This document shows, piece by piece, positions 4,943-57,895 of a DNA stretch of 64,000 nt. The DNA lies in the sequence record PV730300.1. One strand, 5' to 3'. Under the pieces are notes generated by a model, which worked only from the letters and a program-made list of their open reading frames with translations, was not told the origin of the DNA and did not search any database. The translations under genes were made by a program, and so were the position numbers. Within the stretch, counting starts at the first letter, position 1, and each line of letters begins with the position of its first letter. Origin of the DNA: a phage.

Positions 4943-5283
4943 GTAGTACGATGTTGTTGATGTTTTATAAAAGGTGGTTGGAAGGAGATACCTCCCTTAA
5001 TCTCACAGAGCACGGGTTGTGTTTATGTATTAATCATTTTGTGCGAAGTCATTATGCAAAGGATGTGCACAGTCCCAGATGGTATGATGACATGGTGAAC
5101 AGTTTGTTATATGAAATGCGCAAGCAATTTGAAGAAGCTGGTCTTAGTGCTATTAATCCATTTAACAAAGTATATGCAGATTACTTCCTTGAAGTTGAGA
5201 ACAAAATGTGTCATCTGAACCCGCTTCGCATTCAATGGGTGAAAGATCGTATTGAAGATGCAAATAATGCTTGCATTGAATAA
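4918..5283 (+). CDS. hypothetical protein, paralog family member
   Basis: LCLCI, NPFN, CHLNPLRIQWVKDRI motifs shared with 4538 ORF. Confidence 0.55.
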   Translation: MRTKQVSLSSTMLLMFYKRWLEGDTSLNLTEHGLCLCINHFVRSHYAKDVHSPRWYDDMVNSLLYEMRKQFEEAGLSAINPFNKVYADYFLEVENKMCHLNPLRIQWVKDRIEDANNACIE

Positions 5284-5342
5284 AAATGTCTGTATGATGG
5301 TTTGCATACCGCGCATAACAGATAGCCAATGAGGAGATTGAA

Positions 5343-5552
5343 ATGTCAAATATGAAAACTGTATCCTTGTATTTAGCTAACACTGATCGTGTGCACACCC
5401 TTGCTAACGCAAGTCGTGTACTCGTGCAGTTCCGAAACTTCGCACCGTCCGTTGTGACGGGTAGTGAAACGTGTGTGATCGATTTCATCAATGAATATTT
5501 CTACGGGAATCCTGTTGCTCGTCACTTCGTGGAGAATATGAAAGATGCATAA
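5343..5552 (+). CDS. hypothetical protein
   Basis: ORF track; RBS GAGGAG. Confidence 0.45.
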   Translation: MSNMKTVSLYLANTDRVHTLANASRVLVQFRNFAPSVVTGSETCVIDFINEYFYGNPVARHFVENMKDA

Positions 5553-5775
5553 CATGAAACGCATGAAAATTCGTATTGAGAATGATGGTGGTTATAAAGG
5601 ACTTATCCATGCAAAATTTCCACTTGTGTTGGAAGCTACGGTGGAATACAGTGGGCTTGCTCATGTGCGATTCTCGAAGATGATGGAAGTGCAGGAGTGG
5701 TTTTGGGACGAGATAGATGCACGAGAAGGGGAAGATTATGTTTTCTTTCCTCACGAATATGAAATTGTCTATTAA
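5545..5775 (+). CDS. hypothetical protein; paralog of 8886..9107 (shared EWFxxExxxxEGxDYVFF C-terminus)
   Basis: ORF track; C-terminal similarity to 8886 ORF. Confidence 0.5.
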   Translation: MHNMKRMKIRIENDGGYKGLIHAKFPLVLEATVEYSGLAHVRFSKMMEVQEWFWDEIDAREGEDYVFFPHEYEIVY

Positions 5776-5778
5776 AGG

Positions 5779-6027
5779 TTGTGTGCAATGATCACACCAC
5801 AACAGAATGAAGCAGCAATGGATCTTCTTGATAGTTTGTATTTCGATAATTGGTACTCTGAATGTGAATGGATGAATATGCAAACTCTGAAAGAGAAAAC
5901 AGAAGCGTTGATTACAGTAGATCAATTTCTTGCAGAGACGGAAAGAATGAACTATGATATGGCATCTCGCGCACGACGCGTTTCCATTTTCAATAAAATG
6001 TTAGCATTATGGGGAGGTAGAAAATGA
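5779..6027 (+). CDS. hypothetical protein
   Basis: ORF track. Confidence 0.45.
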   Translation: MCAMITPQQNEAAMDLLDSLYFDNWYSECEWMNMQTLKEKTEALITVDQFLAETERMNYDMASRARRVSIFNKMLALWGGRK

Positions 6028-6485
6028 GACAATTCACTATACTGGCAGCTTATGTGCAATGTGTTCACGATTATGTTAGTGCTCATATAGGTTTGCTGGA
6101 AGTTAATAGTAAAATTGAAGGCAATGTGGGTACTGTCTATGTGCAACATACTTTATCTATCGTGCCGTTTAAAGTGTTCAGTGTTGTAGCTGCCGATTAC
6201 AATCGTGTAGATGTGTGTTTCTTGGATCATAATTTTCGTAACGCACTAGATAATATCGAAGATTATCTTCCCGTGAAACCTTTGTCATTTCCACCGAGTC
6301 GTGCAAATAATGTAGTGACAAACCTTAATGAAAGGAATGTGGCTATGCACAAAAAAGTCCGTCAACTGAAAATGCTGATGGAAATGCAAGAAGAGATTGA
6401 AAAAGAACTGAAAGAAGATTTTGGTATGCTTCCAAAAGACGCTTTGAAATGGTATGATGAACTAGGAAGAGAAAGTTATGAATAA
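6024..6485 (+). CDS. hypothetical protein (153 aa)
   Basis: ORF track; ATGA overlap. Confidence 0.5.
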   Translation: MRQFTILAAYVQCVHDYVSAHIGLLEVNSKIEGNVGTVYVQHTLSIVPFKVFSVVAADYNRVDVCFLDHNFRNALDNIEDYLPVKPLSFPPSRANNVVTNLNERNVAMHKKVRQLKMLMEMQEEIEKELKEDFGMLPKDALKWYDELGRESYE

Positions 6486-6672
6486 AGGAACTACTGTATA
6501 TTTAGTAACAAAGAATACCCCAGGCTGGAGCCAATGCAGCACTGTCCCTTACAAGATCTGTGCAACATTAGAACTAGCACAACGTGCAGAAGCAGAAGTG
6601 GATGCCATGCGATACAGCTACGGTGAAATCATTCCTTTCACTCTTGAACAAGAAGGAGCATACAATGTTTAA
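6478..6672 (+). CDS. hypothetical protein
   Basis: ORF track. Confidence 0.4.
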   Translation: MNKGTTVYLVTKNTPGWSQCSTVPYKICATLELAQRAEAEVDAMRYSYGEIIPFTLEQEGAYNV

Positions 6673-6763
6673 AGAAGGTCATGTCTACCGTTTCCAGGAT
6701 GAAGTTTATAAACGTTTGGTTGTTGCTACCATCGGCGTATCTTTTGTTTAAAAGGGGAATGTT

Positions 6764-7201
6764 ATGTTTAAAGTTAATGCTGTTTACTGTTTCAAAACTA
6801 AAGCTGCCCGTGAAGCTTTCTCTATGATCTCTGATGAAAATTTCAAAATGGCAGCTTTGATTGAAGGGTCTTGTTTTCGCGTCGAAGATGTTAGTGAATC
6901 AGGCTCTGTTTGCTCATTGACTTTATTGGACAGCGGGGATATTATTGAAGCTGGACAGTATCCGTTCAGGAGTTGGGAGATATTGTTAGCTCGCGGAGAG
7001 CGTAACTTTTTTATGTGCGTGTCTGCGGGTGAAGTTGTGAAAGAAACTAAGGATGTTTCTGTTTACAATTCTGAATTTATAAGTTATAGTGAGTATCAAC
7101 ATCTGGAAGGCATTGTTGGTCACTTGTTATCTCTGATTGACGTTGAATGTGACCTGCCTGAATCATTGAAAGAAGAGTTGAAAGCATTAGATCTGTTATA
7201 A
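6764..7201 (+). CDS. hypothetical protein; C-terminus LIDVECDLPESLKEELKALDLL shared with 7528 ORF
   Basis: ORF track; RBS AAGGGGAA. Confidence 0.5.
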   Translation: MFKVNAVYCFKTKAAREAFSMISDENFKMAALIEGSCFRVEDVSESGSVCSLTLLDSGDIIEAGQYPFRSWEILLARGERNFFMCVSAGEVVKETKDVSVYNSEFISYSEYQHLEGIVGHLLSLIDVECDLPESLKEELKALDLL

Positions 7202-7228
7202 TGTTTCGCACAACGAAAGGAGAATAAG

Positions 7229-7528
7229 ATGAATCTGACCGAACAGTTACGCCGTATTGCAAAAGAAGCTTCCTTCAACTTCCCTGTTGAAGAAGTGATC
7301 GAGACTTGTTTTGCTGAAGCACGAGCGGGAAACTCTTCAAGAAATTTCACGCCATCCGATTTTGGTCTGGATAACTCCCCTACTCACCCAGGGGAAATCT
7401 ACAATCAGGTGAAATGGATGGATGAAGCAGTAGCAATTCTTCGTGAGCGTGGGCTTGTTGTTTATAAAGAAATGGACCTAAACGGAGCATACGAGTGGAT
7501 CACTATTGATTGGTCCGAGGTGAAATAA
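7229..7528 (+). CDS. hypothetical protein
   Basis: ORF track; RBS AAAGGAG. Confidence 0.5.
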   Translation: MNLTEQLRRIAKEASFNFPVEEVIETCFAEARAGNSSRNFTPSDFGLDNSPTHPGEIYNQVKWMDEAVAILRERGLVVYKEMDLNGAYEWITIDWSEVK

Positions 7529-20769: not shown

Positions 20770-21585
20770 TTATTTGTTTAAGTGGTCTTCGACCATTTTA
20801 ATGAAACCTTCATTGCTGAAGGCTGTTGCAGCTTTTTCTCGGTAAACAAAAACTCCACGATCTTCATAGAGAAGTGTTTCTTCGTAATTAACTCCAGGGT
20901 TAACTACAACCATTTTTGTACCCATACTAAGCGCAGGGAATAATTCCCAATTAAAATTGATAACTTGGTTTGAACATCCTACTACTACAACCAAATCTTG
21001 CATGGTCAAAGTATCGAACAAGTGAGCCATATCTGCATACAAAGGTGCAGCCTCACCAAAAAATACAACATTAGGCTTCACCCAGTTATAATCATCTATG
21101 TTTATACTATTGTAACCAATATCTACCAGTGTTTTGTAATCTCCAGGATGCATACGGTAAACTACTTCAGGGAGATATCCGTGCACGTGAATAACAGAAT
21201 CTCTGTCTACACCTGCTCGCTCTAGTAGATCATCAACGTTTGTTGTCAAGTTTACTATTTGGTTAGGATATTCCTTAAACCATTTTGCTATTTGAATATG
21301 TGCAGCATTAGGTTGTACATCTTTAAGTTCAACACGCCTTTTGTTATAAAATTCGTGTGTTTTGGCATACAAATCCATACCGTTCTCGTCTACACCACCG
21401 ACCACCGGAAGATCTGGAGATGTTCTAACACGATAACCTGCCTGGAAAGCTCCAATATCGCAGACCTCTTCTAAATCATATTCTTCCCATAAGGCACGAC
21501 CACTATCGGTGTCTGTTCGGAATGTTCTAATCCCACTATCTGCACTTAAACCTGCACCGCTTACAAAAATCACTCGTCTTGGCAT
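20770..21585 (-). CDS. Sir2-family (sirtuin-like, NAD-binding) protein lacking the zinc ribbon
   Basis: GAGLSADSGIRTFR, NVDDLLERAG, HVHG, VVVVGCS motifs; no CxxC pairs; RBS GAGGAGG. Confidence 0.7.
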   Translation of the reverse strand: MPRRVIFVSGAGLSADSGIRTFRTDTDSGRALWEEYDLEEVCDIGAFQAGYRVRTSPDLPVVGGVDENGMDLYAKTHEFYNKRRVELKDVQPNAAHIQIAKWFKEYPNQIVNLTTNVDDLLERAGVDRDSVIHVHGYLPEVVYRMHPGDYKTLVDIGYNSINIDDYNWVKPNVVFFGEAAPLYADMAHLFDTLTMQDLVVVVGCSNQVINFNWELFPALSMGTKMVVVNPGVNYEETLLYEDRGVFVYREKAATAFSNEGFIKMVEDHLNK

Positions 21586-27205: not shown

Positions 27206-27514
27206 TCAACAAGTAATTTCAAAAGGTGTATACGGTTCCGTATTTCTCATGATCCAAGGACTGCTAGGATTGCTCGGATCATAAGGACCAAAAGGTTTTA
27301 TGGTAGGTTGTGTTTCTTTCTTCTGAATCTCTTCAAAAATACGACGAAGTTCAGAATATTCTTGATCCACCATAAGATTCGGTGCATCTGATTCTACAGC
27401 TTGTAGGTTATTTTCCTTAAAAACAACCTCACGAACAAGATTAACATCCTCTGTTTCTAAGATAACTTCTTTACGGATATTACCTACACTTTGAATAATT
27501 GTAATCTTATACAT
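27206..27514 (-). CDS. hypothetical protein
   Basis: ORF track. Confidence 0.45.
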   Translation of the reverse strand: MYKITIIQSVGNIRKEVILETEDVNLVREVVFKENNLQAVESDAPNLMVDQEYSELRRIFEEIQKKETQPTIKPFGPYDPSNPSSPWIMRNTEPYTPFEITC

Positions 27515-28257
27515 TAATCCTCCTCAAGAGTTGAATAAAATTGAAGACCACCGTCCATATCGAAATAAGCAAATGTTAAGTTATTATTGAACACAGATCC
27601 AGTATCCATATAAACACGATTCGCATTGATAATAGGTGTTTTTACATAAGAGTGTCCATGAAACACATAATCCACACCCATCACAACAGGAAGTTTCATT
27701 CCCTCTTTAGCACAATCCACCATATCTCTGTCCCACATAAGTGCTTCAGCAAAACGGTTTTCCTGTGTTTTTGTCATCTTCAAAATGTATTCTGGAATAT
27801 CTGTTACAGGGAGATATTCCAAAGAAGATGGATACCCACCATGAATAAACGCAAGTTTCATGCCTCTGTAGTTAACAATGAGAACAACAGGTAAATCTTC
27901 TGTCATCATTGCTAAGGCTGTAGCTCCTTCTTCACCACATTCTTCAAGGACCGTATATCCTCCATTTTGATACCAACACTCGAAGTAGCTACGATCTCCT
28001 TCCAGCATACCTTTAATCATCATGTCTTCATGATTTCCACGAATAGCATAGCGATGGTGTTTACGAGTAAATTCTAAAACACAACGAAAGTTTTGCTTTC
28101 CACGGTCAGTAAGATCTCCTAAAGATACAACTACATCTGTATCTCGGATACCTAACTTTGCCTTTCCTTTTTCATACAAATTATAACAACCGTGTAGATC
28201 TCCGATTATAAAAAGATCTTGATCGCTTTTAACAGTAATTTCTCTGTGTATGATCAC
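27514..28257 (-). CDS. Ser/Thr protein phosphatase (lambda-phosphatase-like metallophosphatase)
   Basis: GDLHGC, GDLTDRG, GNHE, GHS motifs. Confidence 0.7.
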   Translation of the reverse strand: MIIHREITVKSDQDLFIIGDLHGCYNLYEKGKAKLGIRDTDVVVSLGDLTDRGKQNFRCVLEFTRKHHRYAIRGNHEDMMIKGMLEGDRSYFECWYQNGGYTVLEECGEEGATALAMMTEDLPVVLIVNYRGMKLAFIHGGYPSSLEYLPVTDIPEYILKMTKTQENRFAEALMWDRDMVDCAKEGMKLPVVMGVDYVFHGHSYVKTPIINANRVYMDTGSVFNNNLTFAYFDMDGGLQFYSTLEED

Positions 28258-46612: not shown

Positions 46613-47338
46613 TTACTTGTTAATAATACCTGCAATATTAGGTTTAATGAAACCTGACCACTTCATGATCTTACCTTTATCATCAAAGAACACATACACT
46701 TTCTGTTTTTCATTATAAACAGCATGAACACCAGTGTATGCCCCTTCTGGACGATTGGCATTTCGTTCTTCAATTGCAGCACATTCTTGTGCAATGGCTG
46801 AATCGATATCTGAAGTTTTCCAAGTTTTCAGCAACTGTTGTTTAGTTGGATACTTGGAATCATTGCTTTTCAATACCTCTTTAATAACTTTCTTTTCTGG
46901 ATATTTTGAACGGATTAGAGTGTCACGAGACATACGCATAATACCCGCAGCCATTAGCGCCATTTGAACTGGCTCTGTAAATGTTTGTTCCAAAGCATCG
47001 AAATCGGTATACACAGTTGGAGTAAAAACATCGCCTACAGCATAGTCCAAGAAATTCATCGTATGTTCTTCACCAAAGAACATGTAAGTCAGATAACTGG
47101 ATACTACAAAAATATCCGCTGCTGCATCCAAGAGTTCTACATGATCGTTTACTTTCGCGGCTGTTTCATACTCTTTAAGCTCTTCACGAACGAACCCGAT
47201 TTGGGACATAAATAGCTCTTGAGTGAATTCAGGTTGTTCGCCACCTCGTGCTTTGGCATTCCAATCAATCACGTGCTTTGCTGCATTTTTGAAAAATTCA
47301 GTATCGAATTTAATATCTTTAAAAAAATTCTCGATCAT
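46613..47338 (-). CDS. MazG-like all-alpha nucleotide pyrophosphohydrolase (putative)
   Basis: EExxE...ExxD acidic helix pattern VREELKEYETAAKVNDHVELLDAAADIF. Confidence 0.4.
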   Translation of the reverse strand: MIENFFKDIKFDTEFFKNAAKHVIDWNAKARGGEQPEFTQELFMSQIGFVREELKEYETAAKVNDHVELLDAAADIFVVSSYLTYMFFGEEHTMNFLDYAVGDVFTPTVYTDFDALEQTFTEPVQMALMAAGIMRMSRDTLIRSKYPEKKVIKEVLKSNDSKYPTKQQLLKTWKTSDIDSAIAQECAAIEERNANRPEGAYTGVHAVYNEKQKVYVFFDDKGKIMKWSGFIKPNIAGIINK

Positions 47339-47347
47339 TATAACTCC

Positions 47348-47608
47348 TTATTTAAAATAGCTTTCTAGAAAGTTGCTAATATTTACTACAGTCTCACCCA
47401 TGTAAATTCCTGCGAAACCGAAAACAAGCATACGTGGAATATTGAAATACCATTTATCCGCCGGAAAAGATGCCAGAATTACAATAGCAATTGCTATCAA
47501 CATCATAAGAATTGTTGCTAAGATTATCATAAAAATGCCTCCAGGTATTTTGCACAATGATAAGCTAAGAAACAAGAAACTACCGCATACCCAACTCCAG
47601 ACATACAT
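47348..47608 (-). CDS. small membrane protein
   Basis: ORF track; hydrophobic; overlaps next ORF, start may be internal. Confidence 0.35.
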   Translation of the reverse strand: MYVWSWVCGSFLFLSLSLCKIPGGIFMIILATILMMLIAIAIVILASFPADKWYFNIPRMLVFGFAGIYMGETVVNISNFLESYFK

Positions 47609-47721
47609 GAATCAATCGCAACACATATGGTTCTTTTCTTTGAATTCTTAGGAAAGTTTTCAGAAGCATTCATACAATAAAAAGAAAGCACACTGAAAAC
47701 GATTAAAATGGCTAAGAACAT
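47527..47721 (-). CDS. small membrane protein
   Basis: ORF track; hydrophobic N-terminus. Confidence 0.4.
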   Translation of the reverse strand: MFLAILIVFSVLSFYCMNASENFPKNSKKRTICVAIDSCMSGVGYAVVSCFLAYHCAKYLEAFL

Positions 47722-47730
47722 TTTTCCTCC

Positions 47731-48846
47731 TTATTCTGCTGGTTCCCAAGTGCCTGGGATCATTTCTCGGATACGAACACCAACAGGTTTTGTTGGAATA
47801 CCTTCATCTGAAAATTCTTCATACTCTATTTCAACGAACTGATTAATCAAGGTAGAAGCATTCTCTGCTTTACGATAATTGATAGTCTCATGAGCATCTT
47901 TACGCATTAAGAATTCGACTACTTTACCATTTTCCATCTCACCTGTCAACACTCCATCGCCATTTTTATCACTTTTTGAATTTATTACTTTAACTTCAAG
48001 CGTATGACGAGGCTTACGTTTAATAACATCATAAGAACGTTTATCAAATTCGTAAACTCCGTGAGCATTACGATATACTACACCTTCAGCTTTCTCAAGT
48101 AAAGCTTTTTCATAGAAAGCATCAAACTGTTCTTGGTTTTCAATATACTCTGTATGAACTACACAAATAAGCTCATCAAGACCATAATCCTCCACTACTG
48201 CCTTAAGAGCAGTAAGAACATCAACACGTTTTTCAAACGGTAGATCTGGAACTGGAATATCGTATACGTAATAATTCAGCAAAGGTGTATTTGCATTATG
48301 CTTCTTCCAGGCACTGTTAATTTGTTGCAGACTAAGAACACCTAACCCAGCAAACACTTCACCATCAAGAGGATGACCAACAACTTCACTAATAAAGTTT
48401 GGAATACCTTTCCAATGAGGTGGCAGGTTGTACACTTCCCCAGCTTTTGATAAACACTCCCCTTTCATGTTAATCATAGAACGTAACCCGTTCAGTTTGT
48501 ATTGTGCATAACCAGGGAACACAACCCTTTCAGGATAATCTTTATAATCCTGGCATTTCATTGGTGTGGAAGGAACATGGTTTTCAGCTTCTTCTTTTGT
48601 TTTATAATAGCCATTCTTTAACTGTTTTGTCCATTTGGCAAAAGCTTCAAGTTCAGCTTGTTCTTCCGGTGTTGTTTCATTGGAACGACCAATGTTTTTT
48701 GCTTCTGCTGTATAAGATTTTTCTGTGATTTTTCCACCTACCCTTCCATGAGCTACAGTAACAACTGCACCATCTGTATACACTGTCCACTGTTTAAGTT
48801 TTCCTTTTGAATCTTTACCATACAGCGTTTGATTTGTTTGTTGCAT
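47731..48846 (-). CDS. ATP-dependent polynucleotide ligase (DNA ligase, or Rnl5-like nick-sealing RNA ligase)
   Basis: Motif I KLNGLR, motif III LDGEVF, motif IV EGVVYR, motif V DVIKRK; ATG at 48846 after GGGAGG. Confidence 0.65.
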   Translation of the reverse strand: MQQTNQTLYGKDSKGKLKQWTVYTDGAVVTVAHGRVGGKITEKSYTAEAKNIGRSNETTPEEQAELEAFAKWTKQLKNGYYKTKEEAENHVPSTPMKCQDYKDYPERVVFPGYAQYKLNGLRSMINMKGECLSKAGEVYNLPPHWKGIPNFISEVVGHPLDGEVFAGLGVLSLQQINSAWKKHNANTPLLNYYVYDIPVPDLPFEKRVDVLTALKAVVEDYGLDELICVVHTEYIENQEQFDAFYEKALLEKAEGVVYRNAHGVYEFDKRSYDVIKRKPRHTLEVKVINSKSDKNGDGVLTGEMENGKVVEFLMRKDAHETINYRKAENASTLINQFVEIEYEEFSDEGIPTKPVGVRIREMIPGTWEPAE

Positions 48847-49067
48847 TAGTCCTCCCACTTAAAAACTGAAATTTTCAATCTGTTACACACTTCATCCAAA
48901 TCTGCGTCGAGTAACGTTGTAGATGTTGCCAACATATAATCAATACTTGTGAAACCTTGCCCTTTGGCATAGTCAAGCATATCTTCATACATATCTTCAA
49001 GATCACCGTCATCAAAAGTAGCTAGAAAATCCTCGTCTCCGCTACGAACATAAAATGCAGTACTCAT
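48846..49067 (-). CDS. hypothetical acidic protein
   Basis: ORF track; TAATG overlap with ligase start. Confidence 0.45.
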   Translation of the reverse strand: MSTAFYVRSGDEDFLATFDDGDLEDMYEDMLDYAKGQGFTSIDYMLATSTTLLDADLDEVCNRLKISVFKWED

Positions 49068-49255
49068 TCTTCTTCATCCCAAGATTCAAAAGCACAACAA
49101 TCATCGGTTTCTATAATACCAACACGTCCGCAGGTATTGCAAGTGATTTTATCCCCGTAGAATAAATAATTTTTATCACCCTCTGTGTTTACAGTTATGT
49201 CATTACTACCACAAGGGCAAGTCAGCCAACCAACAACAACGATATCTTTTTTCAT
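49064..49255 (-). CDS. hypothetical zinc-ribbon protein
   Basis: CPCGS...CNTCG. Confidence 0.45.
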   Translation of the reverse strand: MKKDIVVVGWLTCPCGSNDITVNTEGDKNYLFYGDKITCNTCGRVGIIETDDCCAFESWDEEE

Positions 49256-49264
49256 AATCCCTCC

Positions 49265-49591
49265 TTAAGCGTTAAGTTCGTTGTTGAGTTCGTAAATCTC
49301 TTCTTGAAGAGCATCAATCTCTTCCTCCAAACGGGAGATCTCTTCTTTTAGATATACCATTTCGGATTCTTTCTCTTCTAATTCATTTTCAAATTTTACT
49401 TTATTAGCCTCATTTTCATAATGCAGTTCAGCGTAATCATCACGCATTTGTTCAATAAGATGAATCAGAGACAAGATATAATTGTCTCCCGTTTCATCAC
49501 GCCACTCTTCACCGTGACGGAGAACGGTAATTCGTCCAGTATCTTCATCTAAAATTGTCTCATATTTACGATCATCTGTATAAATCTGCAT
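49265..49591 (-). CDS. hypothetical coiled-coil protein
   Basis: ORF track; heptad-rich C-terminus. Confidence 0.45.
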   Translation of the reverse strand: MQIYTDDRKYETILDEDTGRITVLRHGEEWRDETGDNYILSLIHLIEQMRDDYAELHYENEANKVKFENELEEKESEMVYLKEEISRLEEEIDALQEEIYELNNELNA

Positions 49592-49600
49592 TATTTCTCC

Positions 49601-50005
49601 TTATTGAAGTTTAAGTGAACCACGAAGACGTTTCTCTTGCTGATCACGGATATATTGTGGAACCTCGTGAATTGAATCATTACCGTGCCTATTTTCAACA
49701 ACTAAAGAGATAACTTGATAACCAAACTCTTCAGCAAGAGCTAGGTAAGGTTTAAGTTCTTTCTCTGTGGTTGAAGTATTAGAAACAATAATCTTGTTAA
49801 GATTAGATGCCATAGCATCACGAACAATACCCTGACACCATGCGTGTGCTTTACCTACATTTTCTGGCTTCCAATCGTAAACACCACTTTCTGTGTAATG
49901 ATATTGATCTGCCTCACAGATAGGCCAATAACCTTCAGAAATAATTTCTGCTACTGTAGATTTACCAGCACCTGAAACGCCACGTAAAATGATAAGTTGT
50001 TTCAT
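49601..50005 (-). CDS. P-loop kinase (polynucleotide 5'-kinase-like)
   Basis: ILRGVSGAGKST Walker A at N-terminus, 134 aa; directly downstream of RNA ligase. Confidence 0.6.
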   Translation of the reverse strand: MKQLIILRGVSGAGKSTVAEIISEGYWPICEADQYHYTESGVYDWKPENVGKAHAWCQGIVRDAMASNLNKIIVSNTSTTEKELKPYLALAEEFGYQVISLVVENRHGNDSIHEVPQYIRDQQEKRLRGSLKLQ

Positions 50006-50938
50006 TTATCCTCCAAAAAAGTTTTCGATTTTTTCACGTCGCTCTTGCTGATTTAAAGCAGCCCATTGAGTCTTCGTAAAATTATTTCGAATCCATTCTA
50101 ACAAAGCGTAATATTCTTCGTCAACCATTTGCTTGGCATTTTTTGGATTATCCCAAATCAGATCCCACTTTTTATCTCCACCACGCATAAGAAACTTCTT
50201 AGTAAGATAGTGTGGTGATTTAATTTTTAAAAGTAAGTTGAACGGATAGTTTGTTTCACGAACTACAAACCCTTCGTGTTTACAATGTTTAGACATTTCA
50301 ACCACATCTGAAAATTTAATCATCGGATAAACTTCAGGACGTTTAAATTTTGTAATAGATGCAATCCCATCAAGCACACCTTCAGGTAACATAAAACTTG
50401 TCCCATCAGGATTTTGAATTCTGGCACCAATTAAGTATGCACCTGGTTCTTCTTCGACAATATGCGGATCAGAAGGATCACAGATTTCAAACAGGAAAGT
50501 TGCTTTTGCACTCTCTGCCCATTTGATGAAATGTTCTATGTCATCGCACTCTGAAACAATATGATTCTTTGCAATACTTGCAAAATCTGATTCAAGGCTT
50601 CCTGTTGTCGATACAATAAGTTGACCTTTATATACACCTACAGAGGCCATAAAACCATTTACTTTACGAACCACATCTACAAGTTCATCCGCTGGTAGAT
50701 CTGTGCCATTCTCAAAACGATTAAAAATCTTAGTGAAAGGCCAAATAACAACATTGTCATCAGCATCAACAACGATTCCGCGACATTCTAGAAGACGAGA
50801 ATCAATGCTCCATAAGTTATCCCAGAAAACTTTGTTCTTATACTTAAGAACAGATAGACCAGAATACTCTCCTTCTTTATATGTTTTCTTATGAACTAAA
50901 CCTTTTTCAACCAAATCGTCGCAATTAAATTTAGTCAC
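50006..50938 (-). CDS. rnlA: RNA ligase, T4 Rnl1-type
   Basis: LLECRGIVVD and KVNGFMASV (motif I) align to T4 Rnl1 LECRGIMF / KEDGSLVST; GTG start after AGGAGAG. Confidence 0.75.
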   Translation of the reverse strand: MTKFNCDDLVEKGLVHKKTYKEGEYSGLSVLKYKNKVFWDNLWSIDSRLLECRGIVVDADDNVVIWPFTKIFNRFENGTDLPADELVDVVRKVNGFMASVGVYKGQLIVSTTGSLESDFASIAKNHIVSECDDIEHFIKWAESAKATFLFEICDPSDPHIVEEEPGAYLIGARIQNPDGTSFMLPEGVLDGIASITKFKRPEVYPMIKFSDVVEMSKHCKHEGFVVRETNYPFNLLLKIKSPHYLTKKFLMRGGDKKWDLIWDNPKNAKQMVDEEYYALLEWIRNNFTKTQWAALNQQERREKIENFFGG

Positions 50939-50939
50939 A

Positions 50940-51491
50940 TTACTCTCCTTTGATTATTTTGTGATGGTCTACAGTCACGATATCTCGTTTACTCATCATA
51001 GAAATTATCTCATCAAAATGCAAGATTTTTCCGTGTGCATCCCAACCCACATCTAACATTTTACCATAAGCTTCATCAGGGAAAGATCCGTGGGAATGCC
51101 CGTGTAGCATGATTGATCCACGACCTTGTTTATTCCAGGAGGCTATAGGGTAATGGCTTAAGACGAAGAACAGCTTCTGATATTTCACTTCGTCATAATA
51201 CACCACTTCTCCATACTCTGCAAGCACTTCTCGGTGTTTGCTGTAGTCATGGTTCCCAACACAGTAGGTGATATCTCCTTGGAGACGGGAAGCAATTTTA
51301 CGGGTATCTTCTTCAGTTCCGAAACAGAAGTCGCCCAAATGCCACATCTTAACACCAGGAGTAGTAGCACATTTGTTCCATGCTTCGATCAAGGCTTCTG
51401 TCATGTGGTCCATATCTTCCCACGGACGATATTCAGGAGCAAACTCTCGAATACGTTTATGCATAAAATGCAAATCGCTTGTAATAAACAT
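50940..51491 (-). CDS. calcineurin-like metallophosphoesterase (candidate RNA 2',3'-cyclic/3'-phosphatase)
   Basis: SDLHF, LGDF, VGNHD, HGHSHG metallophosphatase motifs. Confidence 0.7.
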   Translation of the reverse strand: MFITSDLHFMHKRIREFAPEYRPWEDMDHMTEALIEAWNKCATTPGVKMWHLGDFCFGTEEDTRKIASRLQGDITYCVGNHDYSKHREVLAEYGEVVYYDEVKYQKLFFVLSHYPIASWNKQGRGSIMLHGHSHGSFPDEAYGKMLDVGWDAHGKILHFDEIISMMSKRDIVTVDHHKIIKGE

Positions 51492-51847
51492 TAGTATAAT
51501 CCCTCGCTAAATAATTCATGGTCGTGACCATTACGCTCATGGTCGATCTGGTCAGCATTTTCCGCGATGATGTAAGCATCCGCACGACTCCACCAATTGT
51601 AATACTGATCGATAAAGCCTTGATTATCTGGTGTGCACAAAGTTTTGTTGATTACACCTGCTTCTTTCAACACGTTTAACTGTGCATATAGTACAGGATT
51701 TGCATGTCGAACACAAGGAATAATTAATTCTTCACCATTATTCAAAATATACTTATTCGCAGCACAGACGATAACACGTTGCGCATAATGGCCCTCACCA
51801 ATCCAGGTGAGAGGTTGGTAACAAATGTTCTGATCAATACTACTCAT
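51491..51847 (-). CDS. hypothetical protein
   Basis: ORF track; ATGA overlap. Confidence 0.45.
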   Translation of the reverse strand: MSSIDQNICYQPLTWIGEGHYAQRVIVCAANKYILNNGEELIIPCVRHANPVLYAQLNVLKEAGVINKTLCTPDNQGFIDQYYNWWSRADAYIIAENADQIDHERNGHDHELFSEGLY

Positions 51848-51858
51848 TAAATTTCTCC

Positions 51859-52215
51859 TTAATAGTGAACACGAATCATTTTAATACCATAACGCAGCAT
51901 GGATTCTTTTGCAAGCATGAATTTATCCCCAGCGGCGGGATTAGAAGTATGCACGAAAATGGTAGGTGAACCAAAGCAAGGTTTACCAAACGCCAGAAGT
52001 TCTTCCAAACGCAAGAAAACATCATACCCGTCTTGATCAGAATCTTCACCCAAATCGTTGTCAAAATGCCACTCGTCTACAAAACGATAACCCTTCTGCA
52101 CCTCATTCATGTAACGAGAGGCAAGAAGTTCCTGTGAGGTTTTAAACCAGATTGCATCTGGACAACCATAATCTTTTGGATCACGTAAATCATCAAGCCA
52201 AATAATAGTACCCAT
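51859..52215 (-). CDS. hypothetical protein
   Basis: ORF track. Confidence 0.45.
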   Translation of the reverse strand: MGTIIWLDDLRDPKDYGCPDAIWFKTSQELLASRYMNEVQKGYRFVDEWHFDNDLGEDSDQDGYDVFLRLEELLAFGKPCFGSPTIFVHTSNPAAGDKFMLAKESMLRYGIKMIRVHY

Positions 52216-55969: not shown

Positions 55970-56044
55970 GGCCCTGTAGCTCAATGGGAGAGCTGTCGGC
56001 TCATAACCGATAGGTAGCTGGATCGAAACCAGCCAGGGCCACCA
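55970..56044 (+). tRNA. tRNA-Met (anticodon CAT; could be lysidine-modified Ile2)
   Basis: Manual cloverleaf: 7-bp acceptor GGCCCTG/CAGGGCC, loop CTCATAA, encoded CCA. Confidence 0.65.
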
Positions 56045-56046
56045 AC

Positions 56047-56121
56047 GTCTTTATGGTGTAATGGATAGCACAGGAGTCTTCTAAACTCTTAGTCAAGGTT
56101 CGATTCCTTGTAAAGACACCA
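56047..56121 (+). tRNA. tRNA-Arg (anticodon TCT)
   Basis: Manual fold: loop CTTCTAA, T-arm CAAGG-TTCGATT-CCTTG, CCA end. Confidence 0.65.
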
Positions 56122-56317
56122 GAACATTTTAACATGAATTAGCTCAAGTGATTTGAACCCACTACTGATCATGGTGGCAGAGAATGAGGCAAGTATGTCA
56201 GACATTATAAACAAAGGCCACGGTTATATTAGAAGACATAAATGCTCGAAGAGCACCGTTCGTTGAGAACGGGGGTTGGTGGAGTCACCATTCATGGTAA
56301 AATGTTTTAAAAAACTA

Positions 56318-56346
56318 TTGACAACTAACATTATTTTATGTTAGAT
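56318..56346 (+). promoter_or_regulatory. promoter (ACTATTGACAA box) internal to tRNA cluster
   Basis: TTGACA-N17-TTAGAT immediately upstream of tRNA-Ser. Confidence 0.45.
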
Positions 56347-56355
56347 TATAAGTAT

Positions 56356-56446
56356 GGAAGGGCAAATCGACGTGGCGACGAAAACGGTCTTGAAAACCGC
56401 CGAGCTTGAAAGAGCCTTGGGAGTTCGACTCTCCCTCCTTCCGCCA
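56356..56446 (+). tRNA. tRNA-Ser (anticodon TGA), type II
   Basis: CGGTCTTGAAAACCG anticodon arm matches E. coli tRNA-Ser(UGA); long variable arm; G73; CCA. Confidence 0.6.
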
Positions 56447-56451
56447 GATTA

Positions 56452-56537
56452 GGTAGATTGGTGAAATGGTAGCCACGACAGTTTGCTAAACTGTAGTCGG
56501 AAACGGCGTGTAGGTTCGAGTCCTACATCTACCGCCA
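56452..56537 (+). tRNA. tRNA-Ser (anticodon GCT), type II
   Basis: Acceptor GGTAGAT/ATCTACC, loop TTGCTAA, long variable arm, G73, CCA. Confidence 0.6.
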
Positions 56538-56667
56538 AGTTCTTTTTAATATAGCTTACTTTAATAGAGTAAACTTTCGGCAGATGGCCCCCACCATCTT
56601 ACCGATAACTCATAGTTAGTGGTGTGAACACTGGCTATTTTAAAAAGAATTTAAATATTAGTATTTA

Positions 56668-56755
56668 GGTGAGTTAATTCCGTAGGGGTAGCGGGGCAGA
56701 CTGTAAATCTGTTATCATTGCGATTCGGGTGGTTCGACTCCATCACTCACCACCA
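56668..56755 (+). tRNA. tRNA-Tyr (anticodon GTA), type II
   Basis: GCAGACTGTAAATCTG anticodon arm as in E. coli tRNA-Tyr; A73; CCA; D-arm atypical. Confidence 0.55.
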
Positions 56756-56761
56756 AATTAA

Positions 56762-56847
56762 GATGAGTTGGCTGAATGGTTTAAGCGGCGGACTGTTAAT
56801 CCGTGTTCGAAAGAACGATATAGGTTCAAATCCTATACTCATCGCCA
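56762..56847 (+). tRNA. type-II tRNA (long variable arm, G73) with GTT anticodon (Asn codons); identity uncertain
   Basis: Perfect 7-bp acceptor, loop CTGTTAA, variable arm GTTC-GAAA-GAAC, T-arm ATAGG-TTCAAAT-CCTAT, CCA. Confidence 0.55.
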
Positions 56848-56852
56848 GAATT

Positions 56853-56932
56853 ATGGACTTGTAGAGTTAAGGTAAACCCCCAGTCGCCAAGAGGCTTCTG
56901 AAATTGCAGGTATCGAATCCTGCCGAGTCCCA
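56853..56932 (+). ncRNA. tRNA-like element, isotype unresolved (possible degenerate tRNA)
   Basis: Acceptor-like GGACTTG/CGAGTCC and T-arm-like GCAGG-TATCGAAT-CCTGC but no canonical anticodon arm found. Confidence 0.25.
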
Positions 56933-56937
56933 GCTTT

Positions 56938-57012
56938 GCTCCTATAGTATAATGGCTATTACAACGGTTTTGTAATCCGTGGATCTCTGTTCGATTCAGA
57001 GTGGGAGCACCA
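56938..57012 (+). tRNA. tRNA-Thr (anticodon TGT)
   Basis: Acceptor GCTCCTA/TGGGAGC, loop TTTGTAA, T-arm CTCTG-TTCGATT-CAGAG, CCA. Confidence 0.6.
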
Positions 57013-57287
57013 ACACAACATTAAGAGCACTGTGATTGATCGTCGTATCCTGTGCACAAGGTCTGTTCGAAAGACAGTGTTCTTAGTATTGTGTTGATCA
57101 CACAAAAAGAGTTACCTGAAACTTGACCGGAGTAGGGTTGGATGGGGCAAAAGAAGAAGCGGCTCTCCCATCGACAGCAACGAAGAATAATATTTGACTT
57201 TGGTTTTGTATTATTTTAAGTTAGCTTACCGAACGTAGGGCTAGTCACCCAATGGGATACTCGTCACTGTCCCACTCAATAAAACTA

Positions 57288-57317
57288 TTGACAACCAATA
57301 GTAAAATGTAGTATAGT
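57288..57317 (+). promoter_or_regulatory. promoter (ACTATTGACAA box) internal to tRNA cluster
   Basis: TTGACA-N18-TATAGT upstream of tRNA-Gly. Confidence 0.45.
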
Positions 57318-57328
57318 AAAGATGTAGG

Positions 57329-57402
57329 GCGTTCTTGGTGTAGCGGTAGCATTCCGTCCTTCCAAGTCGGCGGCACGAGTTCGATCCTCGTAGAACGCTC
57401 CA
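57329..57402 (+). tRNA. tRNA-Gly (anticodon TCC)
   Basis: Loop CTTCCAA as in E. coli tRNA-Gly(UCC); T-arm ACGAG-TTCGATC-CTCGT; CCA. Confidence 0.6.
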
Positions 57403-57499
57403 AATTATTTAATAAAGGGTTGCCAGAAAACTTTCTCTTTTACTCATGGTTTTCTCCTTCTCTCACACCTCTTCTGGTTGCCCTTCATTAAATGATTTA

Positions 57500-57575
57500 T
57501 TGGTTTGTAGTGTAGTCCGGTAGCACACGACACTTTGACTGTCGTAGGTTTGGTTCAAATCCAGACAGACCAGCC
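57500..57575 (+). tRNA. tRNA-Gln (anticodon TTG)
   Basis: Anticodon arm CGACA-CTTTGAC-TGTCG; T-loop TTCAAAT; CCA. Confidence 0.6.
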
Positions 57576-57580
57576 ATATA

Positions 57581-57657
57581 ACGGAATTTAGCTCAGTTTG
57601 GTAGAGCATACGCTTTGGGAGCGTAGGGTCGCAGGTTCGAATCCTGCAATTCCGACC
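57581..57657 (+). tRNA. tRNA-Pro (anticodon TGG)
   Basis: Acceptor CGGAATT/AATTCCG; arm TACGC-TTTGGGA-GCGTA; T-loop TTCGAAT; CCA. Confidence 0.65.
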
Positions 57658-57663
57658 AATTTA

Positions 57664-57737
57664 ATGTTTCGTAGTTCAATGGTAGAACCCACGACTGATA
57701 ATCGTGAGACACAAGTTCGATTCTTGTCGAAACAACC
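57664..57737 (+). tRNA. tRNA-Ile (anticodon GAT)
   Basis: Acceptor TGTTTCG/CGAAACA; arm CACGA-CTGATAA-TCGTG; T-loop TTCGATT; CCA. Confidence 0.65.
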
Positions 57738-57741
57738 AGTT

Positions 57742-57811
57742 TCCCGTTAGACTTACAGGATAAGAGTTCCACAGCTTATTGTGATGCTGGTTCGAATCCA
57801 GCACGGGATAC
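57742..57811 (+). ncRNA. tRNA-like element, isotype unresolved
   Basis: T-arm GCTGG-TTCGAAT-CCAGC and acceptor-like TTCCCGT/ACGGGAT but anticodon arm not resolvable by eye; no CCA. Confidence 0.3.
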
Positions 57812-57816
57812 CTAAT

Positions 57817-57895
57817 AGCGGGATAGAGGAGTCTGGTCGTCCTCGCCAGTTTCATATGCTGGAGATCATCGGTTCGAATCCGATTCCCGCCTCCA
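57817..57895 (+). tRNA. tRNA-Met-like (anticodon CAT) with A1-C72 mismatch
   Basis: Arm CCAGT-TTCATAT-GCTGG, T-arm ATCGG-TTCGAAT-CCGAT, CCA; first acceptor pair unpaired. Confidence 0.5.

Follow-up and report, generated by a model that had tools for sequence, protein, structure and literature searches.

Does a phage of Escherichia coli carry, in three small adjacent genes, a set of enzymes for healing and sealing broken RNA? The question is raised by a locus of sequence record PV730300.1, of which a stretch of 64,000 nucleotides was analysed (hereafter the window; all coordinates count from its first letter). A preceding sequence-only reading of this stretch had proposed that genes for a metallophosphoesterase (MPE), an Rnl1-type RNA ligase and a P-loop kinase form a split RNA repair module. 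The analysis described here leads to a similar view: the three genes are likely to form the central, conserved part of a cassette by which phages heal and seal RNA ends. Homology, intact catalytic residues, translational coupling, linkage across phage lineages and gene fusions are the basis for this assignment. The encoded enzymes would be active on RNA, probably tRNA, and might serve as a counter-defence against anticodon nucleases.

The window belongs to a phAPEC8-like Phapecoctavirus (Stephanstirmvirinae), a genus of 150-kb E. coli myoviruses. Its segment 49000-52800 matches 122 phage records in megablast, the closest being Escherichia phages Mt1B1_P17, WPEC1 and ukendt with 98.3-98.5% identity across the entire query. 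The cassette is embedded in a single long minus-strand transcription block, delimited by GC skew at ~20 to 54 kb. Its three co-directional genes occupy exactly the positions given by the sequence-only reading. From upstream to downstream they are:

50940-51491, minus strand: MPE, 183 amino acids
50006-50938, minus strand: RNA ligase, 310 amino acids, GTG start codon
49601-50005, minus strand: P-loop kinase, 134 amino acids

The ATG of the MPE gene overlaps the TAA of the gene upstream (TAATG), one nucleotide separates the MPE TAA from the ligase GTG, and the kinase ATG directly abuts the ligase TAA, with a GGAGGA ribosome-binding site localized within the final ligase codons. Judged from these junctions, the three genes are translationally coupled. 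Consensus scans gave nothing firm on the transcription unit, as promoter-like sites do not outnumber those of shuffled sequence and the scans revealed no convincing terminator within the module.

The ligase is recognised by the Pfam model RNA_lig_T4_1 (PF09511; E=9.4e-15, 55.5 bits for a cut-off of 28.3) and by phrog_562 ('RNA ligase', 2e-70). Its score of 24.2 bits against the NCBIfam equivalog model of T4 RnlA (TIGR02308) is far under the cut-off of 242, and the protein is therefore a member of the PF09511 family and not an ortholog of T4 RnlA. It features the motifs LLECRGIVVD (residues 49-58) and RKVNGF (motif I, with K92). A search of the PDB with the single sequence gave no match; a family profile built from eight diverse homologs matches T4 Rnl1 (2c5u, E=1.9e-22) over profile positions 44-239, which correspond to the nucleotidyltransferase domain. 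Conservation was read from a 32-sequence family alignment together with the profile alignment to T4 Rnl1. The invariant residues R53, K70, K92, G95, E151, E222, G223, K238 and K240 correspond to T4 R54, K75, K99, G102, E159, E227, G228, K240 and K242, respectively, and the nearly invariant F72 to T4 F77. Motifs I (K92-V-N-G95), III (E151), IV (E222-G223) and V (K238-x-K240) of covalent nucleotidyltransferases are all kept, and ten of the 11 T4 Rnl1 residues that we take to be essential are retained.

The AlphaFold (AF2) model of the ligase (pLDDT 92, pTM 0.86) has as its ten top Foldseek matches in the PDB either fungal Trl1-LIG (9qw7, 6n0v, 6n67, 8rbj and 9r3w) or T4 Rnl1, with E values of 4e-14 to 5e-12 and TM-scores of 0.60-0.65. 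Rnl3 (E at least 3e-10), Rnl2 (at least 5e-7), DNA ligases (at least 8e-5) and Rnl5 all come behind. Residues 242-307, which form the carboxyl terminal region, are all-helical in the model. Sequence and model concur in assigning the protein as a putative ATP-dependent RNA ligase of the Rnl1 clade, and its specificity would be for RNA over DNA. The label 'tail fibre attachment' borne by this ligase was rejected as a legacy of the naming of T4 gp63; the gene sits amid early nucleic-acid metabolism genes.

The kinase matches Pfam AAA_33 (E=2.7e-10, 41 bits for a cut-off of 27), phrog_2071 ('ATPase', 2e-56) and phrog_505 ('polynucleotide kinase', 8e-8). Its P-loop, GVSGAGKST, has G9, G12, G14, K15 and S16 invariant. 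D33 is also invariant and aligns to D35 of T4 Pnk, the catalytic general base of that enzyme, while the invariant R106 (in ENRHGN) aligns to T4 R122, not to R126, inside a gapped loop. Searched as a single sequence against the PDB, the protein gave P-loop-only matches. The best solved matches of its profile are T4 Pnk (1ly1/1ltq, 6e-6), Clostridium thermocellum Pnkp (kinase domain, 4gp7, 2e-5) and Capnocytophaga Pnkp1 (4xrp, 3e-5), with alignments that span ~130 positions for 1ly1, 1ltq and 4gp7 and 105 of 136 for 4xrp. Adenylate, thymidylate and uridine kinases match the first 40-50 residues only, with E values of 0.008 or worse. The match to the PHROG family of deoxynucleoside monophosphate (dNMP) kinases is weak (1.2e-4) and limited to residues 1-35, that is, to the P-loop.

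Word-indexed homolog searches gave only close stand-alone relatives of the kinase, and fusions emerged from an exhaustive profile search that yielded 12,902 relatives. Fusion classes were drawn from the longer proteins among the best 150 of these. They comprise kinases joined to an Rnl1-like ligase (P0303, which matches the window ligase with a phmmer E value of 4e-64 and is of the same subfamily, and P0271), fusions of a ligase fragment and a kinase, kinases with an HD phosphoesterase at their amino or carboxyl terminus (P0278, P0313, P0364 and P0382; E ~1e-40 to the kinase profile), kinases fused to CNPase, and kinases combined with CUE, DUF1771 and Smr domains (the N4BP2 architecture). All identified partners (ligase, HD, CNPase and Smr) act on nucleic-acid ends. 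By its sequence relationships the protein is best placed among polynucleotide 5'-kinases, in the same clade as the N4BP2-, CNPase- and HD-fused kinases, and not among dNMP kinases.

The MPE has a Pfam Metallophos_2 match (E=3.4e-5) whose 24.3 bits lie under the cut-off of 27. All six diverse members of its family examined match this model, the best one at 3.8e-8, and the window protein is also recognised by phrog_547 ('phosphoesterase', 9e-56). Its family profile has a sole strong match in the PDB, the Aquifex protein aq_1665 (1xm7, 1.2e-17). The metal-ligand motifs D6-x-H8, G53-D54, G79-N80-H81, H113 and G131-H132-x-H134 do not vary among six homologs with 36-50% identity. In the same search of all PDB chains, no chain of Pnkp or lambda-phosphatase type was returned at E<=1; the MPE is therefore not of the bacterial Pnkp type. 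The sequence data identify it as a predicted calcineurin-like binuclear metallophosphoesterase of an aq_1665-like subfamily. Action on RNA 2',3'-cyclic phosphate or 3'-phosphate ends is suggested by gene linkage alone.

The identities proposed in the sequence-only reading were all borne out: a 134-amino acid kinase with a P-loop, a phosphatase of calcineurin rather than HAD type (no HAD domain was found in the module), and a ligase with the LECRGI and KxNG sequences whose profile and fold both lead to T4 Rnl1. The question that it had set beforehand, whether the kinase falls with dNMP kinases, is answered by near-full-length matches to polynucleotide kinases and a dNMP-type likeness confined to the P-loop. 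The profile searches that it had proposed as a check gave scores above cut-off for the ligase and the kinase, though not for the MPE.

The association of the three genes is conserved well beyond Phapecoctavirus. Screening of 50,697 phage records for the three families found the ligase in 686 records and the kinase in 623; ~75 of the ligase records, from Streptomyces phages, concern a distant long form. The ligase/kinase counts by genus are 199/198 for Escherichia, 175/173 for Pseudomonas, 36/36 for Klebsiella and 24/24 for Acinetobacter. The neighbourhood of the ligase was examined in 80 IMG/VR loci that carry a relative with 38-89% identity (41 clusters at 70%), by searching their open reading frames (ORFs) with family profiles. 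The kinase is present in 74 of these 80 loci, within 2 kb of the ligase in 70, within 150 nucleotides in 46, and as a single kinase-ligase ORF in 12. A kinase-ligase ORF of 431 amino acids (L073:7533-8828) was verified with Pfam. Among the six loci that lack the kinase, five have the ligase at most ~2.8 kb from the locus end and one (L028) has an 8-kb flank on each side. The MPE was found in 66 loci, in 62 of them within 2 kb.

Kinase and MPE are both present in 62 of the 80 loci. The order MPE-ligase-kinase of the window is found in 36 loci and kinase-ligase-MPE in 22, the ligase being central in 58 of the 62 loci with both partners. An HD-phosphoesterase profile built from HD-kinase fusions had no match in any of the 80 loci. 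Linkage is also seen in seven annotated phages of six unrelated genera, in which the ligase gene lies a few kb from the kinase gene and, in six of them, also from the MPE gene. Annotated phages with ligase-kinase linkage include rV5, Pseudomonas phage K8, the T5-like Vibrio phage JSF10, Vibrio phage X1, Acinetobacter phage Acibel004 and Aeromonas phage 2L372X.

In phages K8 (L004:6346-9172), JSF10 (L005:5818-8610) and X1 (L009:105-2603), which are unrelated to one another, the ligase and kinase genes are flanked by genes for NAD+ salvage, coding for nicotinamide phosphoribosyltransferase, PRPP synthetase and NMN adenylyltransferase/Nudix. This arrangement is a hint that RNA repair may be connected to NAD+ supply. 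The Streptomyces phage Jay2Jay (L007:2209-2520, 4965-6065 and 6612-7511) encodes a 366-amino acid T4-like Rnl1, a T4-type Pnkp and a cREC-like 'response regulator', their genes being interspersed with tRNA genes and a tmRNA. The pathway has here another design, independent of the first, in Streptomyces phages.

The surroundings of the three genes in the window include the following features:

51491-51847, minus strand: 118-amino acid protein (phrog_839, PF26092), its gene coupled to the MPE gene and lying between it and the cREC gene
51859-52215, minus strand: cREC protein, 118 amino acids (Pfam cREC_REC PF20274, 3.4e-13)
47731-48858, minus strand: ATP-dependent DNA ligase, 743 nucleotides downstream of the kinase gene
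46613-47338, minus strand: MazG-like nucleotide pyrophosphohydrolase, 241 amino acids (Pfam PRA-PH 2.7e-6, phrog_671)
27514-28257, minus strand: second MPE, lambda-phosphatase-like (Pfam Metallophos 1e-12)
20770-21585, minus strand: Sir2-family protein, 271 amino acids (Pfam SIR2 1.9e-22)
55970-57895, plus strand: ten phage tRNA genes (ARAGORN)

The sequence-only reading had the module end at 51491. The triad stands as described, and the module extends past it, with cREC just upstream and the MazG-like and Sir2 proteins belonging to the same published type of neighbourhood. The cREC family is a derivative of the receiver domain, predicted to be a metal-independent cyclic-phosphate esterase (PMC7824862, PMC9503650). 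Its acidic/polar motifs WLDD, FDNDLG and VHTSNP are conserved, and the acidic ones are kept as far as the homolog of a Streptomyces phage. In GenBank records the cREC gene is found under the erroneous label 'putative RNA ligase and tail attachment protein'. The membership of the phrog_839 protein in the module is doubtful. Its gene has no linkage to the ligase elsewhere, and the protein has a well-predicted fold for which no solved relative was found. An extra ORF of 47 amino acids (L001:8855-8998, L002:5855-5998) separates the phrog_839 and cREC genes in the closely related phages ukendt, ESCO37 and Mt1B1_P17. It is absent from the window (51848-51858) and from phages DE16, SF1-1 and EF1-1, which defines an indel polymorphism of ~148 bp.

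The gene immediately preceding that of the Rnl1-like ligase in Vibrio phage JSF10 (L005:1920-2663) codes for a homolog of the second MPE. The latter might thus serve as an alternative phosphatase for end healing, of the type found in bacterial Pnkp. Flanking genes were also scanned for a Hen1 methyltransferase domain, which was not found among them.

The module resembles a neighbourhood already described for phage rV5, composed of a sirtuin, a T4-like tRNA ligase, cREC, a nucleotide kinase and MazG, with 'occasionally' a calcineurin-like phosphoesterase, and read as an RNA repair system (Iyer, Burroughs, Anantharaman and Aravind, Viruses 2022, PMC9503650, section 3.7.3). The rV5/Mydo neighbourhood was interpreted there as cleaning up 2',3'-cyclic phosphate ends before ligation. 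A 2021 survey of jumbo phages by the same authors had noted calcineurin-like and HD esterases as the phosphatase of some phage repair sets. In tblastn, rV5 encodes orthologs of the window ligase (48% identity), kinase (43%), MPE (36%), cREC (53%), MazG-like protein (30%; ORF85) and Sir2 (46%; ORF84). The ligase, cREC, kinase, MazG-like and MPE genes of the window are likewise grouped, all within 46613-52215 and on one strand. Two features differ. The sirtuin gene, displaced in this genus, is 28 kb from the ligase gene in the window but adjoins the ligase module in rV5 and its relatives, and the kinase and MPE genes are co-directional and coupled with the ligase gene in the window while they are divergently transcribed in rV5. 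The cREC gene also adjoins the ligase gene in rV5.

Across the 80 ligase loci, cREC is present in 10, Sir2 in 11 (365-2232 nucleotides downstream of the ligase) and MazG in 13 (downstream of the ligase), in enterobacterial lineages only. In enterobacterial phages cREC counts as an accessory of the module; the MazG-like protein is possibly an accessory component too, as in the rV5-type neighbourhood, and Sir2 a possible distal partner of the cassette. The MPE, found in 66 loci, is a near-constant partner and not an occasional one as in the published account (PMC9503650).

The ten tRNA genes lie ~3.8 kb past the cREC gene and ~4.5 kb past the MPE gene, in agreement with the few kb announced by the sequence-only reading. 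At least one tRNA gene is found within 8 kb in 38 of the 80 ligase loci, a count that ignores phylogeny and the general clustering of early genes. The proximity is suggestive and makes the tRNAs candidate substrates of the cassette. One member of the cluster, identified by ARAGORN as tRNA-Asn(GTT) (56762-56847, plus strand), is 86 nucleotides long and of class II shape, with an extended variable arm; its D stem has 3 bp, position 73 is G, and the CCA end is encoded. Class I is the rule for Asn tRNAs, and both G73 and the overall shape are reminiscent of Ser tRNAs. It is ~58% identical to the nearby class II tRNA-Ser(GCT) (56452-56537) and is therefore not a recent duplicate of it. It could be a mis-decoding tRNA or a variant that evades nucleases.

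The gene content of the cassette allows a sequence of reactions to be proposed, whose chemistry is modelled on T4 Pnkp/Rnl1, bacterial Pnkp and Trl1. A metal-independent RNase, for instance a host anticodon nuclease or a toxin RNase, would cut RNA and leave a 2',3'-cyclic phosphate and a 5'-OH. The MPE, helped or preceded by the cREC esterase, would open and remove the cyclic or 3' phosphate to give a 3'-OH. The kinase would then move a phosphate from an NTP to the 5'-OH, using the P-loop K15 and D33 as general base, and the ligase would adenylylate itself at K92, pass AMP to the 5'-phosphate and seal the break.

Several observations weigh against this assignment of the cassette to RNA repair. 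The nearest solved relative of the MPE, aq_1665, has no assigned function, and the MPE family, with 1359 phage records against the 686 of the ligase, is about twice as widespread. It is also found in Staphylococcus and some Vibrio phages that have no recognisable RNA-repair neighbours. As the family is broader than the ligase, its substrate need not be RNA ends. In favour of RNA repair, a family member in Listeria phage LP-064 lies near an Rnl2-type ligase, RtcB and NADAR. The lineage with fused kinase and ligase has no MPE nearby. In the kinase, the position of T4 Pnk R38 is occupied by H36 and is variable across the family; in the ligase family an invariant Thr (T112) replaces T4 Rnl1 K119. 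The carboxyl terminal domain of the ligase has ~70 amino acids for ~120 in T4 Rnl1, and the two do not align in sequence. In T4 Rnl1 this all-helical domain confers tRNA preference; the short domain of the window ligase cannot be aligned to it, and tRNA specificity is therefore not readable from the sequence. An ATP-dependent DNA ligase encoded within 8 kb in 48 of the 80 loci leaves room for a role at DNA ends. No biochemical or genetic test of the module was found in the literature searched, including that on Phapecoctavirus, Vequintavirinae and Pakpunavirus.

Other functions were considered for the same genes. The cassette might be the viral counterpart of the eukaryotic Trl1/Tpt1 pathway, in which cREC would generate a 2'-phosphate end, the ligase would require or tolerate it, and Sir2 would remove it with NAD+ as an analogue of Tpt1, the MPE providing an alternative, full-clearing route. 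A Tpt1-like role for Sir2 was proposed by Iyer et al. (PMC9503650). The model of the window ligase is as near to Trl1-LIG as to T4 Rnl1, the kinase is of N4BP2/CNPase type and cREC is a predicted cyclic-phosphate esterase, which keeps this scheme open. Further likeness to fungal and plant Trl1 (ligase-kinase-cyclic phosphodiesterase) is found in the adjacent ligase and kinase genes, fused in other viruses, and in the CNPase-fused members of the kinase family. Unlike Trl1, which has a 2H cyclic phosphodiesterase, the window has an MPE and cREC as healing esterases, and most viral fusions have the kinase first and the ligase second, opposite to Trl1. Among the 60 matches listed (E<=0.23) of the 97 that the kinase profile has in the PDB at E<=1, none is a chain of Trl1, its kinase domain included. 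The scheme is rather unlikely. If true, RNA ligation dependent on a 2'-phosphate would have its first example in a bacterial virus, and the sirtuin would have a new chemistry.

It is improbable that the genes form a true RNA healing-sealing unit used for programmed processing of phage RNA (transcripts of the tRNA cluster or deliberately cleaved RNAs) rather than for damage repair. The tRNA genes ~4 kb away, the presence of tRNA genes near the ligase in other loci and the class II tRNA with an Asn anticodon would fit such a role. However, ARAGORN saw no introns or split tRNA genes in the window, and the proximity count has the phylogenetic and clustering limits given above. To our knowledge, moreover, reversal of anticodon nuclease action in T4 is the sole experimentally established role of a phage Rnl1 and end-healing pair.

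A third possibility is that kinase and MPE heal DNA ends (5'-OH and 3'-phosphate) for the DNA ligase encoded at 47731-48858, like PNKP and its ligase partner or the PdeM system. T4 Pnkp also acts on DNA ends, the DNA ligase gene of the window is on the same strand as the cassette, and the MPE has a weak match to the NCBIfam model of ligase-associated PdeM (0.0043). The score of 16.5 bits is, however, far under the cut-off of 150. The DNA ligase gene, encoded on the same strand as the RNA ligase and within 2 kb of it in 28 loci, is never adjacent (none of the 48 cases within 150 nucleotides), while the RNA ligase lies between or beside kinase and MPE. Twelve loci have kinase and RNA ligase fused, the two co-occur nearly one-to-one across genera, and the triads of Vibrio phage JSF10 and Acinetobacter phage Acibel004 have no DNA ligase in the surrounding stretch examined. 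A function at DNA ends is accordingly very improbable; the neighbourhood suggests a common region for nucleic-acid break repair or simple synteny.

It is also highly unlikely that the three proteins are neighbours with separate jobs, the kinase being a nucleotide or nucleoside kinase, the MPE a small-molecule phosphodiesterase (for example of cyclic nucleotide immune signals) and the ligase acting alone. Ribonucleotide reductase, ThyX-like, NT5C-like and MazG-like enzymes are indeed encoded at 36-47 kb, in a block to which such a kinase could belong, many phages carry the MPE family without the ligase, and the kinase has its weak PHROG dNMP kinase match. The likeness to dNMP kinases is nevertheless limited to the P-loop while that to polynucleotide kinases is full-length, and the fusion partners of the kinase (RNA ligase, HD, CNPase and Smr) connect it with nucleic-acid ends. 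The central position of the ligase in two mirrored gene orders would be hard to explain without a shared function. A chance pattern is excluded by the recurrence of the same genes in hundreds of phage genomes.

The RNA end-healing and sealing cassette can be compared with characterised repair systems. In T4, tRNA repair by Pnkp and Rnl1 counters the anticodon nuclease PrrC. The same three chemical steps (5' kinase, 3' end healing and Rnl1-type sealing) are predicted here from the genes, the nucleotidyltransferase domains of the two ligases are homologous, and the window kinase is distantly homologous to the kinase domain of T4 Pnk. Unlike the T4 enzyme, whose kinase is fused to a HAD phosphatase, the window kinase is free-standing and the phosphatase is a binuclear MPE; a kinase-HAD Pnkp of T4 type is found instead in phage Jay2Jay. 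The window ligase is also shorter than T4 Rnl1 (310 and 374 amino acids, respectively), which adds to the differences in its carboxyl terminus and at K119.

The bacterial Pnkp systems (Clostridium thermocellum Pnkp/Hen1 and Capnocytophaga Pnkp1-Rnl-Hen1) share with the window the set of kinase, metallophosphoesterase and ligase. This parallel, drawn in the sequence-only reading, applies to the set of activities and not to the phosphatase subfamily: the window has three genes instead of one polypeptide, an aq_1665-like MPE and an Rnl1-clade ligase that is not of the Pnkp ligase type. A further end-healing enzyme, HD-Pnk, is reportedly an HD phosphoesterase fused to a polynucleotide kinase, as in Runella slithyformis. 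An HD domain is likewise fused, at either terminus, to near relatives of the window kinase; in the window itself the phosphoesterase is a separate MPE gene.

The split arrangement emphasised in the sequence-only reading is real but not new. The cassette is already known from comparative genomics as a predicted RNA repair system, present in more than 600 deposited phage genomes, with its genes annotated in GenBank (as 'RNA ligase', 'phosphoesterase/metallophosphatase' and 'ATPase', occasionally 'polynucleotide kinase') and the rV5 homolog interpreted in print (PMC9503650). The discovery value is incremental and consists of refinements of this system. The conserved core is formed by ligase, kinase and MPE and does not include the sirtuin; the MPE is found regularly and not just occasionally; kinase-ligase fusions exist; and the kinase belongs with the N4BP2/CNPase/HD-Pnk kinases.

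It is now recognised that bacteria commonly carry defences that cleave RNA or tRNA (PrrC, RloC, PARIS, retrons, Cas13, HEPN and toxin RNases). We know of no experimentally proven phage repair answer to them other than T4 Pnkp and Rnl1. The cassette is the commonest alternative design found: over 600 phages with sequenced genomes have it, their hosts being Escherichia, Klebsiella, Pseudomonas, Vibrio, Acinetobacter and Aeromonas, and many are candidates for therapy. If it works as proposed, it would help to account for the host range that rV5-like, phAPEC8-like and Pakpuna-like phages have among strains with RNA-targeting defences, and would provide three small separable enzymes, a polynucleotide kinase of 134, an end phosphatase of 183 and an RNA ligase of 310 amino acids, as possible reagents.

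Two further observations concern the records of these phages. A gene at 49265-49591, which codes for a 108-amino acid coiled-coil protein, is mislabelled 'DNA polymerase I' or 'hol-like chemotaxis' in GenBank. Three records named 'Campylobacter phage' (B15, C3 and C15) have ~96% DNA identity to, or a ligase that is 97%, 88% or 48% identical to that of, E. coli Phapecoctavirus, Stephanstirmvirinae and Vequintavirus genomes, which suggests that their hosts are mislabelled.

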